64,000 nucleotides of DNA from Rhodocyclales bacterium. GTDB taxonomy: Bacteria > Pseudomonadota > Gammaproteobacteria > Burkholderiales > Rhodocyclaceae. The position numbers and the translations under genes were made by a program. The notes beneath the pieces were generated by a model. The model searched no databases. It had not been told where the DNA came from and worked only from the letters and a program-made list of their open reading frames with translations. The stretch's first letter is position 1, and every line of letters starts with the position of its first letter. The stretch covers positions 4,583 through 68,582 of the forward strand of contig PQAF01000037.1 in the NCBI GenBank assembly GCA_003105015.1, given 5' to 3'. Shown piece after piece: positions 17,931 through 30,480 of the stretch.

Positions 17931-20513
17931 GTGTCAAAGACTTTCTGGAAAACCGATTGGTTCATCGGCGTTGTCGTGAGCGTGGTCATGCTCTTTGCAG
18001 GCAGCGGCGAATTGCTGCAGAGCCTGGAGCGCAAGGCCTACGACCTTGGCGTCGGTGCAGTCTCTCGAGAACCAAGCAGCAAGATCGCCGTCATCGCAAT
18101 CGACAAGCAGAGTATCGACAACCTCGGCCGTTGGCCCTGGTCGCGCGAAGTGCATGCAAAGATGATCGACGGACTGGCGGCCGCCAAGGCCAAGGTTATC
18201 GCTTCATCCATTTTCTTCTCCGAGCCCCAGATCGATCCCGGGCTCGCCTACATCAACAAGCTGATCGAACTCTACGGCCAGGCCGGTGGTGCGCCGCTGA
18301 CGGGTGCGCCGGAGGCGCTGGCGGCCCAGTTGCCTCCCTTGGGGCAGTTCGGCCCGGTGTTGGCCGAGGCTGAACAGAAGCTCAATAGCGACCGACGCAT
18401 GGGCGAATCGGTCGCCAAGTCGGGCAATGTCGTCCTGCCGATGCTGTTTCGGCTCGGGGAGCCGCGCGGGAGGCCGGACAGGCCCTTGCCGGACTTCATC
18501 AAGAAAAATGCGATTTCCCAAGTCGAAAAAGGCGAGGAGGCGCCGCTTCTTACCTCTGACGTGGAGGCACCGGTCGTCGAGGTGCTCGGCCTCAGCGCTG
18601 CGGCAATCGGCCATCTCAACGTCAATCCCGACGTGGATGGCGGCATACGTACCGAGCCGCTGGTGCTGGCCCATTTCAACGAAATCTACCCCTCCCTTTC
18701 CCTGATGATCGCGGCCAAGAGCCTCAATCTCGGCGTCGCCGACATCAAGGTCAAGCTGGGCGATTCGGTAAGGCTGGGCAATCTGAAGATCGGCACCGAC
18801 CCGGTCATGCAGATGAATACCTTCTTCTACAAGGATCACGAGGGCAAACCTGCCTTCCAGGTGGATTCGTTCTTCGACGTGACCAGCGGCAAGATCCCCC
18901 TGGACAAGTACAAGGACAAGATCGTACTGATCGGACCGACGGCCGCCGGTATCGGCAGCATCTTCGTTACGCCCGTGTCGCCAGCCATGCCGGCAGTGCT
19001 GATGCAGGCGCATACCGTGTCCAGCATCCTCCAAGAGCATTTCTTCGTCGTTCCGACATGGGGCTGGATCGTCGAGCGGGTGGCCTTCCTTCTGGTGGCC
19101 GTCTACCTCATCGCGCTGCTGCCGCGCCTCAAGGCAGGCATGGGGGCGGGCGTGACCGTGGGCCTGTTCGTAGTCCTGGTGGCGGCGCATTTCGTCCTCA
19201 TGACGACGCAATTGATGTGGCTGCAACTCATGGTGCCAGCAACCTTGCTGTTGGTGGGCCATGCCCTGCTGACCACCAAGCGCTTCCTCGTTACCGAACG
19301 CGGCAAGGAGAAATCGGAGGCCGAGTCGGCCGAGTCGAACCGCATGCTGGGCCTGGCCTTCCAGGGCCAGGGCCAGCTCGACATGGCCTTCGACAAATTC
19401 CGCAAGTGCCCGATGGACGAGGCCGTGATGGAAAACCTCTACAACCTGGGACTGGACTTCGAGCGCAAGCGCCAGTTCAACAAGGCCGAGTCGGTTTTTC
19501 GCTACATGGCTGATTTCAACCCGAAGTTTCGCGACCTGGAAACACGGCTGAATCGGGCCAAGGCCATGTCGGAGACTGTGATGCTGGGCGGCGGCGGGCG
19601 ATCGACCGCACAGGGCACCATGATTCTCGAGGGCGGTCAGGTGGAAAAACCCATGCTTGGCCGCTATCAGGTCGAGAAGGAACTCGGCAAGGGCGCCATG
19701 GGCGTGGTGTACCTTGGCCGCGATCCGAAGATCAACCGCGTCGTGGCCATCAAGACCATGGCGTTGTCGCAGGAGTTCGAGGAAGACGAACTCAAGGATG
19801 TGAAGGAGCGCTTTTTCCGGGAGGCTGAAACGGCAGGCCGCCTGAATCACCCGAACATCGTGACCATTTTCGATGCCGGCGAGGAACATGACCTGGCCTA
19901 TATCGCCATGGAATTCCTCAAGGGCAAGGATCTGGTCCCATACACCAAGACCGGCAACCTGATGCCGCTCGCCAAAGTGATGGACATAGTCGCCCGCGTC
20001 GCCGATGCGCTTTCCTACGCCCACCAGAACAGCGTGGTCCATCGTGACATCAAACCGGCCAACATCATGTACGAACCGGAGTCCGATGCGGTCAAAGTGA
20101 CCGATTTCGGCATTGCCCGCATTACCGATTCGTCGAAGACCAAGACGGGCATGGTGTTGGGCACGCCCAGCTACATGTCGCCGGAACAACTGGCCGGCAA
20201 GAAGATCGACGGTCGCTCCGACCTTTTCTCCCTCGGCGTCATGCTCTACCAGATGGCTTGCGGCAAGCTGCCCTTCGAAGGCGATTCGATGGCCCAGTTG
20301 ATGTTCAAGATCGCAAACGAACCGCACCCCCACATCCGCGAGTTCAATCCGCAGGTGCCGGAGTGTCTGGCGGCGATCATCGACCGGGCGCTGGCCAAGG
20401 ACAATGCACAGCGTTACCAGACCGGCGCCGAAATGGCGGCCGACTTGCGTGCCTGCATGGGCTTGAGCACGGGCGGAGGGGCACCTTCGCCGCAGGTTGA
20501 TTTCAATCTTTGA
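17931..20513 (+). CDS. CHASE2-domain membrane Ser/Thr protein kinase (Hanks type)
   Basis: GTG 17931 after AGGAGAGG. N-terminal TM, CHASE2-like region (IAVIAIDKQSIDNLGRWPWSR...KIVLIG), three TMs, TPR-like helices, then LGKGAMGVVY, VAIK, HRDIKPAN, DFG. Confidence 0.93.
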   Translation: MSKTFWKTDWFIGVVVSVVMLFAGSGELLQSLERKAYDLGVGAVSREPSSKIAVIAIDKQSIDNLGRWPWSREVHAKMIDGLAAAKAKVIASSIFFSEPQIDPGLAYINKLIELYGQAGGAPLTGAPEALAAQLPPLGQFGPVLAEAEQKLNSDRRMGESVAKSGNVVLPMLFRLGEPRGRPDRPLPDFIKKNAISQVEKGEEAPLLTSDVEAPVVEVLGLSAAAIGHLNVNPDVDGGIRTEPLVLAHFNEIYPSLSLMIAAKSLNLGVADIKVKLGDSVRLGNLKIGTDPVMQMNTFFYKDHEGKPAFQVDSFFDVTSGKIPLDKYKDKIVLIGPTAAGIGSIFVTPVSPAMPAVLMQAHTVSSILQEHFFVVPTWGWIVERVAFLLVAVYLIALLPRLKAGMGAGVTVGLFVVLVAAHFVLMTTQLMWLQLMVPATLLLVGHALLTTKRFLVTERGKEKSEAESAESNRMLGLAFQGQGQLDMAFDKFRKCPMDEAVMENLYNLGLDFERKRQFNKAESVFRYMADFNPKFRDLETRLNRAKAMSETVMLGGGGRSTAQGTMILEGGQVEKPMLGRYQVEKELGKGAMGVVYLGRDPKINRVVAIKTMALSQEFEEDELKDVKERFFREAETAGRLNHPNIVTIFDAGEEHDLAYIAMEFLKGKDLVPYTKTGNLMPLAKVMDIVARVADALSYAHQNSVVHRDIKPANIMYEPESDAVKVTDFGIARITDSSKTKTGMVLGTPSYMSPEQLAGKKIDGRSDLFSLGVMLYQMACGKLPFEGDSMAQLMFKIANEPHPHIREFNPQVPECLAAIIDRALAKDNAQRYQTGAEMAADLRACMGLSTGGGAPSPQVDFNL

Positions 20514-20596
20514 GAATATATGGACCCCCACGCTCACATTCGATCGCTGCCCCCCGAGGGGGCGCATGCCTTCCTTGGGACGGCCCGGCGGGAGGC

Positions 20597-28819: not shown

Positions 28820-28824
28820 GCGTC

Positions 28825-30480
28825 GTGGACACCATCGAGGATCTCTTCCGGCGGTTCGAGCAGCTTAACGAGATCGGCGCTGCCCTCTCCCACGAGCGTG
28901 ATATCGACAGGCTGCTCGAGAACATACTGGTCGCGGCCAAAAACATCACCCACGCCGACGGCGGCACCCTCTATCGCATGACCGAGGGAGAGGCCAACCT
29001 GCGTTTCGAGATCATGCGCAACGACAGCCTGAAGATCGCCCTGGGCGGCACCTCGGGCAATCCCATCCCCTTCCCGCCCCTGCCGTTGCGCACCGAGAGC
29101 GGCGAAGAGAACAACTCGATGGTGGCGGCCTACGCCGCCATTCACCAGAAGACCGTCAACATCGACGACGCCTACCAGGCGGAGGGTTTCGATTTCTCGG
29201 GCACGCGCAAATTCGACGAGCGCACCGGCTACCGCTCGCAGTCGTTCCTTACGGTGCCGATGAAGAACCACGAGAACGCGGTGATCGGCGTGCTGCAGTT
29301 GATCAACTCGATAGACCCGGACACGAAGCGGGTCGCGCCGTTCTCCGCCGCCGACCAGCAGCTGGCCGAATCGCTCGCCTCGCAGGCGGCCATTGCCCTG
29401 ACCAACCGCCAGCTCATCACGCAGCTGGAGCAGCTGTTCGAATCCTTCATCCAGCTGATCAACGTGGCGATCGACGAGAAATCGCCCTATACGGGAGGCC
29501 ATTGCGAGCGCGTGCCGGTGCTCACCATGATGCTGGCCGAAGCGGTGAATGGGACGAACGCCGGGCCGCTTGCCGACTTCGGCATGACGGACAAGGACCG
29601 CTACGAGCTGAAGATTGCCGGACTGCTGCACGATTGCGGCAAGGTGACGACGCCGGTGCACGTGGTCGACAAGGCCACCAAGCTGCAGACGCTCTTCGAT
29701 CGCATCCACCTGGTCGACACCCGCTTCGAGGTGCTCAAGCGCGACGCGCAGATCGCCATGCTGAAGGCCAAGCTGAACCTGCGCGATTCCCACGATGCGC
29801 GAGCCGAGGCCATGCTCGACGAGGATCTCGTGCGCCACCTGCGCCAGATCGACGCCGACCGCGAATTCCTGCGCCAGGCGAACATCGGCTCGGAGCTGAT
29901 GACGCCGGAAGCCCAGCAGCGCGTGAAGAAGATCGGCACCGGCTATCGCTGGATGGACGTCGACGGCAAATCCGCCAACTTCCTCACCGACGACGAGCTG
30001 GAGAACCTCAACATCCGTGCCGGTACGCTGACGCAGAAGGAGCGCGAGACGATCAACTACCACATCGTAGCCACCATCAAGATGCTGGAGCAGCTGCCCT
30101 GGCCGAAGCACCTGAAGAACGTGCCGGAGTACGCCGGAGGCCACCACGAGCGCATGGACGGGAAGGGCTACCCGAAAGGGCTCACGCGCGAGCAGATGAG
30201 CGTGCAGGCCCGCGTCATGGGCATCGCCGACATCTTCGAGGCCCTGACTGCCCGCGACCGGCCCTACAAGCGCGGCAAGACGCTATCCGAGTCGCTGGAG
30301 ATACTCGGCAACTTCAAGCTCAACGGCCACATCGATCCGGACCTGTTCGATGTCTTCGTGCGGCAAAAGGTGTATCTGAAGTACGCCGAACAATTCCTCG
30401 ATCCGGAGCAGATCGACGAAGTGGATGAATCAAGAATTCCGGGCTACCAAGGCAAGGATGCTGCTTTGCAGCAGAAGTGA
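28825..30480 (+). CDS. GAF plus HD-GYP phosphodiesterase
   Basis: GAF (DERTGYRSQSFLTVPM...GVLQLIN); LHDCGK, HHERMDGKGYP, ADIFEALT, RPYK intact. Start uncertain (GTG 28825 or TTG 28807). Confidence 0.9.
   Translation: MDTIEDLFRRFEQLNEIGAALSHERDIDRLLENILVAAKNITHADGGTLYRMTEGEANLRFEIMRNDSLKIALGGTSGNPIPFPPLPLRTESGEENNSMVAAYAAIHQKTVNIDDAYQAEGFDFSGTRKFDERTGYRSQSFLTVPMKNHENAVIGVLQLINSIDPDTKRVAPFSAADQQLAESLASQAAIALTNRQLITQLEQLFESFIQLINVAIDEKSPYTGGHCERVPVLTMMLAEAVNGTNAGPLADFGMTDKDRYELKIAGLLHDCGKVTTPVHVVDKATKLQTLFDRIHLVDTRFEVLKRDAQIAMLKAKLNLRDSHDARAEAMLDEDLVRHLRQIDADREFLRQANIGSELMTPEAQQRVKKIGTGYRWMDVDGKSANFLTDDELENLNIRAGTLTQKERETINYHIVATIKMLEQLPWPKHLKNVPEYAGGHHERMDGKGYPKGLTREQMSVQARVMGIADIFEALTARDRPYKRGKTLSESLEILGNFKLNGHIDPDLFDVFVRQKVYLKYAEQFLDPEQIDEVDESRIPGYQGKDAALQQK

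Follow-up and report, generated by a model that had tools for sequence, protein, structure and literature searches.

The question raised by this locus is why a Ser/Thr phosphorylation circuit and a cyclic nucleotide circuit stand together, on one strand, with a PilB-type ATPase that carries a GAF domain, just ahead of the pilin gene pilA. The locus lies in a stretch of 64,000 nucleotides (C37:4583-68582, hereafter the window) from the 3.5 Mb, 95% complete genome of a Rhodocyclales bacterium, and its ATPase, called GAF-PilB here, is 92% identical in its N-terminal region to that of Candidatus Desulfobacillus denitrificans (Rhodocyclaceae), the nearest named relative. The initial annotation, made from the sequence alone, had described eight same-strand genes with small gaps that encode a writer, an eraser and a reader of phosphothreonine (pThr), a maker, a breaker and a reader of cyclic nucleoside monophosphates (cNMP), GAF-PilB and a GAF-HD-GYP protein. 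Pfam confirms all of these parts and the writer, eraser and reader roles, with all eight genes on the + strand and spacings that range from small overlaps to 113 nt. In order, they are a CHASE2 Ser/Thr kinase (STK), a PP2C phosphatase, an FHA protein, a CHASE2 class III cyclase (CYC), a metallo-beta-lactamase (MBL) fold phosphodiesterase (PDE), a cyclic-nucleotide-binding (CNB) rhodanese protein, GAF-PilB and the GAF-HD-GYP protein (HDGYP). The explanation we favour is that of a signalling operon, conserved among betaproteobacteria and located at the pilin locus, which places a second-messenger-sensing PilB paralogue under two membrane sensors.

Distribution of GAF-PilB and canonical PilB

An even sample of 201 genomes of GTDB Burkholderiales, which correspond to the betaproteobacteria, contains a full-length GAF-PilB orthologue in 95 genomes, with 43–74% identity and nearly always in a single copy; at a looser cut-off (E 1e-10) there are matches in 104 genomes and in 53 of the 116 genera. 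Orthologues from a phylum-wide sample of 401 genomes fall solely inside Burkholderiales, and a pattern scan with one genome per species returned more than 596 species with GAF-PilB. Named carriers include Sulfurisoma sediminicola, Azospira sp. I13 and isolates of Sulfuritalea. The 201 genomes were scored for canonical PilB (TIGR02538 above cut-off), for PilQ (TIGR02515) and for the TfpB-like ATPase (NF053534). Among the 167 PilQ-positive genomes, 69 have canonical PilB only, 48 have GAF-PilB only (about 29%), 41 have both and 9 have neither, several of these nine being incomplete assemblies or having a PilB just below the cut-off. The two ATPases have a complementary distribution (Fisher odds ratio (OR) 0.11, p 5e-9), and although these counts ignore shared ancestry, which has to be held against them, the pattern recurs in many families. 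GAF-PilB is present in 48 of the 57 PilQ-positive genomes that have no canonical PilB.

The loci of the other pilus genes agree with this. In ten of ten genomes with GAF-PilB and no canonical PilB, a PilC orthologue (69–80% identity) adjoins PilD, and no PilB-like gene was found within 3–4 kb of the pilC-pilD pair, while the CcsB-like neighbour upstream of the window genome's own pilBCD is kept in five of these ten pilB-less loci (L163-L172). In the complete genome G019, GAF-PilB and one other protein are the only ATPases of PilB size, and PilQ, PilC, PilD and PilT/PilU are present; the 46% G+C of its sampled 20-kb locus suggests Nitrosomonas. Since GAF-PilB is complementary to canonical PilB and pilC-pilD persists without pilB, we consider it very probable that it is a genuine extension motor of type IVa pili, and the simplest reading is that it can serve, often solely, as the type IVa extension ATPase. 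The complementary distribution raises the plausibility of the central claim made for the locus.

As a separate observation, in one of the ten pilB-less loci (G174, L163, C1:2381904-2390121) a gene for a CNNM/CorC-type transporter fills the pilB slot 5' of pilC-pilD.

It could be argued that GAF-PilB is not a type IVa motor, and that it works for another filament or secretion system (T2SS-like, MSHA-like or for DNA uptake) or is a pure cyclic AMP (cAMP)-binding regulator, with another ATPase serving the pilus. Several findings weigh in this direction and against our interpretation: no pilC/gspF, pilD or secretin gene adjoins GAF-PilB in any locus mapped; the protein reaches only 482.3 bits in the PilB equivalog model TIGR02538, whose cut-off is 675.65 bits, compared with 842.5 bits for the canonical PilB of the same genome; the window genome has four other PilB/GspE-like ATPases (five of PilB/GspE size altogether); and an orphan TfpB-like ATPase is also present in 27 of the 48 GAF-PilB-only genomes. 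Moreover, one of the four is a canonical PilB, intact with pilC and pilD on contig C34, so a second motor is not needed there a priori. However, loss of canonical PilB is unrelated to TfpB (OR 1.16, p 0.74) and strongly related to GAF-PilB, as given above, and in 21 of the 48 genomes, from at least 11 families, which lack both canonical PilB and TfpB, GAF-PilB is the sole candidate, while TfpB is alone in only one genome. The other PilB-size ATPase of G019 belongs to a self-contained cluster which includes a secretin and a GspF platform gene of its own, and the MshE-type paralogues of the window genome each have their own GspF. Additionally, the ATPase motifs of GAF-PilB are invariant, its clade groups with PilB rather than with GspE or MshE, and pilA is found at the locus in about half of the cases. 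We regard the non-motor alternative as improbable.

The initial annotation had spoken of a dedicated pilus extension ATPase. The complementary distribution and the pilC-pilD pairs without pilB support the extension ATPase, but the word dedicated is too strong for the window genome because an intact canonical pilB-pilC-pilD is present on another contig; here GAF-PilB is a second motor beside pilBCD.

Two other accounts of the orphan ATPases were considered and rejected, i.e., that GAF-PilB is merely an extra orphan (on the cross-tabulation with canonical PilB) and that the TfpB-like orphan replaces PilB (its presence is independent of canonical PilB loss). The TfpB-like ATPase of the window genome (C28:19152-21023) adjoins htpG and lies above the cut-off of NCBIfam NF053534 ('TfpB'), and orthologues of it occur in 92 of the 201 genomes, always in a single copy and independently of canonical PilB.

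Domains of the motor and its predicted messenger

Orthologues of all block proteins were extracted from 120 related loci and aligned, and catalytic and ligand positions were checked over 70–119 orthologues. The initial annotation had found the catalytic motifs intact; this was borne out, and every catalytic residue checked in the eight genes is invariant apart from gaps at contig ends. Judged by these alignments, the enzymes and readers of all eight genes are intact and subject to strong purifying selection.

GAF-PilB consists, in this order, of a cNMP-type GAF domain (residues ~25–195), an MshEN-like N1 domain, an acidic linker and the T2SSE ATPase core. The motifs GPTGSGKT, GEMRD, HLVFATLHT and CGEC...CEKC are intact and are invariant in 112–117 of 119 orthologues, with the rest being contig-end gaps. 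A tree of ATPase cores recovers GAF-PilB as a monophyletic clade (100/100 support, with a long stem), which is sister to canonical PilB (94/85) and separate from the MshE-, GspE- and TfpB-like proteins. The existence of a monophyletic sister of canonical PilB with a complementary distribution is new. It has to be set against this that the sister join links two long branches, about which the tree tool gives a warning, and that the core deviates from PilB in two places. GAF-PilB carries PQDGK for the PQDGR of PilB, with Lys in 119 of 119 orthologues, and has an insert of about 30 residues, EYCEELLNTSTFKKDAKAGYETVYKEWAKNY, between the Cys pairs of the zinc subdomain (window 28390-28630, residues ~650–725); the insert was seen in the three GAF-PilB members compared, and neither the insert nor the Lys was seen in the other PilB/GspE paralogues under comparison. 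A search with the first 370 residues of the motor retrieved more than 6,900 database proteins, with generic names only.

The N-terminal region suggests a cyclic mononucleotide. The cyclic di-GMP (c-di-GMP) motif RLGxxLLxxGLLxxxxLxxxLxxQ (NF053729, a tandem of 24 residues) has no match in GAF-PilB, where the region reads KYDHLVADAVLSAAEFDLATRSAR, whereas two MshE-type paralogues of the same genome match it at 4e-22 and 8e-17. When the profile of GAF plus N1 was compared with the PDB, the best match was the cAMP-bound tandem GAFs of Anabaena CyaB2 (1YKD, E 1e-35), followed by PDE5, PDE10A and PDE2A (1e-15 to 1e-16), PDE6 and the GAF of PmGH. The segment TGYRT, which aligns with the same segment of the CyaB2/PDE GAFs, is invariant, while N163 is retained in 91 and K164 in 86 of 119 orthologues. 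On this sequence evidence, the motor GAF probably belongs to the cAMP/cGMP-binding CyaB2/PDE GAF subfamily.

Class III cyclases select ATP by Lys together with Asp/Thr, and GTP by Glu together with Cys/Ser. In the cyclase of the block, the metal-binding D493/D537, the substrate-specifying K533/T607 and the transition-state N614/R618 are invariant in 88 of 88 orthologues, as in adenylate-specific class IIIb enzymes, and the closest relatives of known structure, among them P. aeruginosa CyaB (3R5G, E 2e-34), are adenylate cyclases. Because the Lys/Thr pair is the class IIIb adenylate signature, the predicted messenger is cAMP; the cyclic nucleotide circuit of the initial annotation stands, and its generic cNMP can be narrowed. 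The phosphodiesterase has the HSHLDH signature of class II cNMP phosphodiesterases (H82, H84, D86, H87), invariant in 107 of 107 orthologues. It scores 43.7 bits in PF02112 (cut-off 23.7), although over only 62 of 340 profile positions, and its best PDB match is yeast PDE1 (4OJV), which is weak (E 1.5e-6).

The CNB protein had been described as a tandem cNMP-binding protein. This holds at the level of the predicted fold, where the AlphaFold2 (AF2) model has a predicted local distance difference test (pLDDT) score of 80.6 and Foldseek ranks the tandem CNB-A/B domains of PKG I-beta and PKA-R first (260–290 columns, E 1e-17). By Pfam there is one detectable CNB domain, with no match in the N-terminal 159 residues; alignment of the N-terminal with the C-terminal domain by hhalign is in register but weak (E 0.004). 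CNB-B has the phosphate-binding cassette FGEEAL..RNAT, while CNB-A is degenerate and has no cassette. The description had also passed over the rhodanese domain, with its active-site loop CQSGRR; its C330 and the CNB residues G231, E232, R241 and A243 are invariant (70 of 70 orthologues). The gene is optional and occurs in about half of the loci.

The last gene encodes a GAF-HD-GYP phosphodiesterase with LHDCGK and HHERMDGKGYP, where HD and HHExxDGxGYP are invariant in 101–105 of 105 orthologues, and with a ~110-residue insert which splits the HD and GYP halves. The best PDB matches are PmGH (4MCW) and V-cGAP3 (5Z7C), and the predicted substrate is c-di-GMP or a different cyclic dinucleotide. 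The GAF domains of this enzyme and of the motor are paralogues (26% identical, E 4e-15). Two MshE-type ATPases elsewhere in the genome (C34:91800-94736 and C5:31379-34300) have intact c-di-GMP motifs and a GspF-like gene after each, and a pilin-like gene is near an MshE-type ATPase (C34:95329). With two MshE-type ATPases and their platform genes, the genome therefore has c-di-GMP-dependent filament systems open to the action of an HD-GYP enzyme.

A messenger other than cAMP for both GAFs, e.g., cGMP, another cyclic nucleotide or an unrelated small molecule, was also weighed, in which case the MBL enzyme would be an RNase-Z-like or Apyc1-like hydrolase. In favour of this and against cAMP, the ligand specificity of a GAF domain is not readable from its sequence, GAFs that bind cAMP and GAFs that bind cGMP are both among the PDB matches, and the ligand of the PmGH GAF is not known. 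The NKFDE motif of the motor GAF is only partly kept, with the Asp replaced (NK..F...AE). In the phosphodiesterase, the class II match is confined to the region of the metal-binding motif, and the top NCBIfam matches are RNase Z (76 bits) and a cyclic-nucleotide-degrading phosphodiesterase model (50 bits), both far below cut-off. Against a different messenger are the invariant adenylate signature of the cyclase, the cAMP-bound state of the best GAF match and the invariant HxHLDH signature. Additionally, the phosphodiesterase is the most faithful neighbour of the motor gene, which fits a ligand relationship. A non-cAMP messenger seems quite unlikely to us, and we lean slightly towards a cAMP-gated pilus motor as the core of the mechanism.

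Gene order and the phosphorylation module

For synteny, the window proteins were mapped on 20-kb regions containing 40 of the orthologues (~35 families) and on the loci of the 80 nearest relatives with 10 kb on each side. The order STK-PP2C-FHA-CYC-PDE-(CNB)-PilB-HDGYP, with the same strand, is found in 20 of the 40 family-level loci, in agreement with the earlier supposition that such gene strings occur in other betaproteobacteria. A lack of conserved order among relatives, which the initial annotation had named as a ground for rejecting its reading, is clearly contradicted by these loci. Enough flanking sequence was available for 83 loci; all eight genes are present in 37 of them, and in a further 18 only the CNB gene is missing. 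Counted singly, the phosphodiesterase and HD-GYP genes are each present in 78, PP2C together with FHA in 77, the cyclase in 65, the kinase in 60 and the CNB gene in 42 of the 83 loci; pilA is within range in 40 and sucD is upstream in 33. There are reduced forms, such as PP2C-FHA-PDE-PilB-HDGYP and PP2C-FHA-PilB-HDGYP-pilA, of which the PDE-PilB pair is the minimal one. An arrangement that recurs in loci of dozens of families, with order and strand unchanged, is far beyond chance.

The features of the locus are collected in Table 1. The kinase combines a CHASE2 domain in the periplasm with transmembrane segments, a TPR-like linker and a Hanks kinase domain, in which K635, D733, K735, N738, D752 and E779 (catalytic Lys, HRD, DFG and APE) are invariant in 70 of 70 orthologues. 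Its CHASE2 domain is only 22% identical to that of the cyclase, and the second sensor therefore probably has another ligand. The metal-binding Asp residues of the phosphatase are invariant in 91–93 of 93 orthologues, and this is the only protein of the block with an NCBIfam equivalog score above cut-off.

Table 1. Features of the locus, with positions in the window and the supporting matches.
Feature	Position	Strand	Evidence and remarks
sucC/sucD	15559-17624		upstream of the block; 225 nt from sucD to the first block gene
Sigma-70-like promoter candidate	17731..17760	+	TTGACT-18-AAGAAT, TG extension; consensus match only; in the 225-nt gap after sucD
CHASE2 Ser/Thr kinase	17931..20513 (ORF opens 17850)	+	Pfam CHASE2 4e-52, Pkinase 3e-57
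PP2C Ser/Thr phosphatase, Stp1/IreP family	20597..21421 (ORF opens 20510)	+	NCBIfam NF033484, 256 bits (cut-off 230)
Two-FHA adaptor	21442..22200	+	Pfam FHA 2e-22
CHASE2 class III (IIIb-type) adenylate cyclase	22314..24545	+	Pfam CHASE2 3e-53, Guanylate_cyc 1e-22
MBL-fold phosphodiesterase	24559..25329 (ORF opens 24478)	+	Pfam Lactamase_B_2 1e-19, PDEase_II 2.5e-11 over 62 residues
PKA-R-like tandem CNB + rhodanese	25340..26407 (ORF opens 25319)	+	Pfam cNMP_binding 3e-20, Rhodanese 8e-15
GAF-PilB	26444..28819	+	Pfam GAF, MshEN, T2SSE 3e-118
GAF-HD-GYP phosphodiesterase	28807..30480	+	Pfam HD_5 3e-41, GAF 5e-14
Sigma-54 promoter element	30575..30589	+	TGGCAC-N5-TTGC, ~70 nt 5' of pilA; read directly from the sequence
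Type IVa major pilin PilA	30661..31122	+	Pfam Pilin 2e-18, N_methyl 9e-10
Strong intrinsic terminator after pilA	31142..31168	+	10-bp stem, 8 GC pairs, then T-run
645-aa membrane protein and glycosylation genes	31198-39998, on to ~46000		directly 3' of pilA

The FHA protein begins with a canonical FHA1 domain (residues 15–92), whose pThr pocket (G27, R28, S42, H45, N64, G65) is invariant in 82–83 of 83 orthologues. Directly after it stands the nearly invariant segment DFEKTMVLR (residues 105–113), followed by 50–100 residues of hypervariable Pro/Ala-rich linker and a divergent FHA-like domain (~165–252), which is well conserved yet has no pThr-pocket residues (TLGK, no SxxH). The C-terminal part has weak hidden Markov model (HMM) matches to FHA and Yop-YscD, and in the AF2 model the C-terminal domain reaches a pLDDT of 80–93, whereas FHA1 is modelled poorly (~40–50, from a shallow alignment), so that only the C-terminal domain of the model is usable. 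Foldseek matches of the model are all FHA domains, with the matched domain not specified. By the weak HMM matches and the predicted fold, the second domain is FHA-like. Thr109 in DFEKTMVLR is a candidate phospho-Thr site of the pT-x-x-L type, the best one found, and may be the target of the CHASE2 kinase. The best named relatives of the protein are FhaB/FipA and OdhI, with family scores below the NCBIfam cut-offs.

A specific phosphorylation arm, in which kinase and PP2C set the state of Thr109 of the FHA protein, is a tentative proposal. Two points speak against it: the orthologue alignment revealed no conserved Thr acceptor on GAF-PilB, and the kinase is missing in 23 and the cyclase in 18 of the 83 loci. 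A Thr in the acidic linker of the motor (ELTGED) had been considered as phospho-acceptor and was ruled out, as it is not conserved in the alignment.

Because the kinase and the cyclase are absent from some loci, the phosphorylation module and the cAMP module are separable, and it has to be asked whether only the cAMP module controls the motor, with the kinase, PP2C and FHA protein acting elsewhere, e.g., on the CHASE2 cyclase, on the HD-GYP protein or, beside sucCD, on metabolism in the manner of GarA/OdhI. Besides the missing genes and the absent acceptor, the existence of PDE-PilB-only loci, the best named relatives of the FHA protein, the GarA/OdhI domains among its Foldseek matches and the position of sucCD directly upstream in 33 of 83 loci would all suit such a division. 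On the other hand, PP2C and FHA stay with GAF-PilB in 77 of 83 loci, even without kinase and cyclase, and order and strand are always the same; the GarA/OdhI family score is far below its cut-off (57 against 200 bits); and genomes of a family without the block have a pilin gene after sucD, so that the sucCD neighbourhood there belongs to the pilin locus and not to the triad. Separate action of the two modules is, in our opinion, doubtful, though it deserves more weight than the non-motor and non-cAMP alternatives, and the single signalling operon remains our best explanation.

In that family (f10), all four genomes (G164, G120, G009, G069; loci L201-L203, L206) have one or two major pilin genes 0.3–2.9 kb 3' of sucD on the same strand, and no pilin was present within 4 kb in the other seven of the eleven genomes checked. 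Because the f10 genomes have a pilin downstream of sucD, the block can be said to occupy the sucD-pilA interval.

That the block is one operon is suggested by its gaps, by the single upstream promoter-like site and by a terminator scan in which no strong + strand terminator was found within the eight genes. The initial annotation had placed the block immediately before pilA. The pilin gene does follow, but after a gap of 180 nt and with a sigma-54 promoter of its own; this adjacency is therefore not equal to co-transcription, and the separate promoter counts against a shared transcription unit. The terminator 3' of pilA appears to close the unit. A genome-wide pilin motif scan returned four pilin-type genes, of which the PilA of the window is the only Pfam-confirmed type IVa pilin and the only one at which a sigma-54 promoter was seen.

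The G+C content of window positions 14000–46000, a stretch which takes in sucCD and the signalling block, is 0.58–0.62, compared with 0.64–0.73 in the flanks. A recently acquired island, suggested by the change from 0.68 to 0.60 at 14–46 kb, was rejected for the signalling block because its sucD-to-pilA position is kept in 33 of 83 loci. Directly 3' of pilA stands a gene for a 645-residue multi-pass membrane protein with a C-terminal TPR, for which there is no NCBIfam match and a sub-threshold TPR_19 as the sole Pfam match. It is followed by a polyprenol-phosphate-sugar-synthase-like GT2, several glycosyltransferases (GT1/GT2/GT4) and two methyltransferases, and the G+C of this region drops to 0.53–0.60. 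The 645-residue protein and the GT2 recur 3' of pilA in 8 of the 83 related loci. The region beyond pilA looks, by its gene content, like a pilin or surface-glycan glycosylation island, and its glycosylation genes may still be mobile.

Proposed circuit and its relation to known systems

Direct gating by cAMP through the CyaB2/PDE-type GAF, with kinase and FHA input, would run as follows. The CHASE2 cyclase would raise cAMP on a periplasmic cue and the class-II-type phosphodiesterase would reset it. By binding to the GAF of the motor, cAMP would switch the ATPase activity, or the docking on the PilC/PilM platform, and turn pilus extension on. The same cAMP might activate the GAF-HD-GYP protein, as in Tlr0485, and lower c-di-GMP; the two MshE-type c-di-GMP-dependent ATPases would then go off, which would give a reciprocal switch between pilus systems. 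The tandem-CNB-rhodanese protein would be a third, optional reader of cAMP. In parallel, the CHASE2 kinase would phosphorylate Thr109 of the FHA protein, PP2C would reverse this, and the FHA protein, by self- or trans-recognition of pThr, could act as an adaptor on the motor or on the cyclase. In the window genome, GAF-PilB would probably be a signal-dependent alternative motor beside the ordinary PilB, working in the same machine.

To put all of this together, GAF-PilB would be a third lineage of type IVa extension motors, gated directly by cAMP and not by c-di-GMP, which has displaced canonical PilB in about one quarter to one third of the sampled piliated betaproteobacterial lineages; a periplasmic signal perceived by CHASE2 would switch extension via cAMP, the kinase, PP2C and two-FHA protein would form a second gate, and a cAMP-activated HD-GYP would shut down the c-di-GMP-dependent MshE-type pili. 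As a whole this picture is speculative, and we put it forward with clear reservation. The lineages with a displaced PilB would include many Rhodocyclaceae from groundwater and wastewater, as well as a low-GC genus that is possibly Nitrosomonas-like.

All parts of the block are of known kinds, and the novelty lies in their wiring, i.e., a predicted GAF/cAMP input on an extension motor, combined with a CHASE2 kinase/PP2C/FHA switch and a GAF-HD-GYP protein. The initial annotation knew of no functional description of the arrangement, and no publication on the operon was found in our full-text literature searches, although most subscription journals are outside their coverage and the absence is not proof. 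The MshEN domain gives direct c-di-GMP control of assembly ATPases, e.g., Vibrio cholerae MshE (Wang et al. 2016, PMC5013675), and the bare GAF-MshEN-T2SSE architecture is already listed in the supplement of that paper (Glov_1971); the fusion itself is therefore not new. Like MshE, GAF-PilB is a hexameric ATPase of the PilB/GspE family with, as predicted, a nucleotide second-messenger input at the N-terminal region, but it has no RLGxx c-di-GMP motif, has an added cAMP/cGMP-type GAF, has no platform gene of its own and lies inside a cyclase, phosphodiesterase and kinase operon. With canonical PilB (M. xanthus 3JC8, Geobacter 5TSG) it shares the core, Walker A/B, the His box and the tetracysteine site, as well as a sister position and an interchangeable distribution, but it differs by the extra GAF, PQDGK, the ~30-residue insert, a score of 482 bits against the cut-off of 675 and by never standing beside pilC-pilD.

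In P. aeruginosa, cAMP controls type IV pili transcriptionally, via CyaB/Vfr with Pil-Chp. In Synechocystis, Cya1/Sycrp1 exert cAMP control of type IV pili via a CRP-type transcription factor (PMC7690835). In both, as predicted here, a class III adenylate cyclase is tied to pilus function; the predicted readers of the block are, in contrast to these CRP-type routes, the motor, the HD-GYP protein and the CNB-rhodanese protein, none of which has a DNA-binding domain, and the sensor is CHASE2 and not MASE2/Chp. For the eighth gene, Tlr0485 of Thermosynechococcus vulcanus, as cited in a preprint (bioRxiv 10.1101/2021.11.05.467447), is a GAF-HD-GYP protein whose c-di-GMP phosphodiesterase activity is cAMP-dependent. 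Tlr0485 and PmGH have the same architecture as the GAF-HD-GYP protein of the window, and Tlr0485, so far as that citation goes, provides the logic of cross-talk from cAMP to c-di-GMP; the window protein differs by its ~110-residue insert and by being in one operon with the presumed source of cAMP and with a motor which has a paralogous GAF.

The initial annotation had compared the triad with PpkA/PppA/Fha1 of the P. aeruginosa H1 type VI secretion system (T6SS). The analogy is a functional one, as in both cases a membrane Hanks kinase, a PP2C and an FHA protein stand beside an ATPase-driven machine, with a post-translational logic. Kinship of the families does not follow, since the FHA protein reaches only 44.9 bits in the TagH/Fha1 family TIGR03354 (cut-off 120) and has two FHA domains, the kinase has a CHASE2 sensor, and no T6SS gene is among the ~30 genes annotated at 13.8–40 kb of the window. 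GarA/OdhI and Bdellovibrio DgcB are FHA proteins which bind pThr in their own tail, and DgcB ties FHA and pThr to c-di-GMP signalling. They are among the Foldseek matches of the FHA protein, and the Thr beside FHA1 suggests that the same self-recognition switch may operate here; the family scores below cut-off, the second, divergent FHA-like domain and the different partners set it apart.

Type IV pili drive twitching, surface sensing, DNA uptake and the formation of flocs and biofilms. The direct control of pilus motors that is known so far acts through c-di-GMP (MshE, some PilB), and known control by cAMP is transcriptional (Vfr, Sycrp1). If our interpretation is true, a motor which reads cAMP itself would be a new regulatory layer, with its own sensor cyclase and phosphodiesterase, a Ser/Thr phospho-switch and c-di-GMP breakdown. 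Additionally, CHASE2, a widespread sensor domain for which we know of no identified ligand, would gain a concrete and assayable output. The carriers matter environmentally and technically: they comprise sulfur oxidisers, possibly Nitrosomonas-like bacteria, and relatives of Rhodocyclaceae known for denitrification and polyphosphate accumulation. In many carriers, PilC and PilQ have no PilB-type partner left but GAF-PilB.

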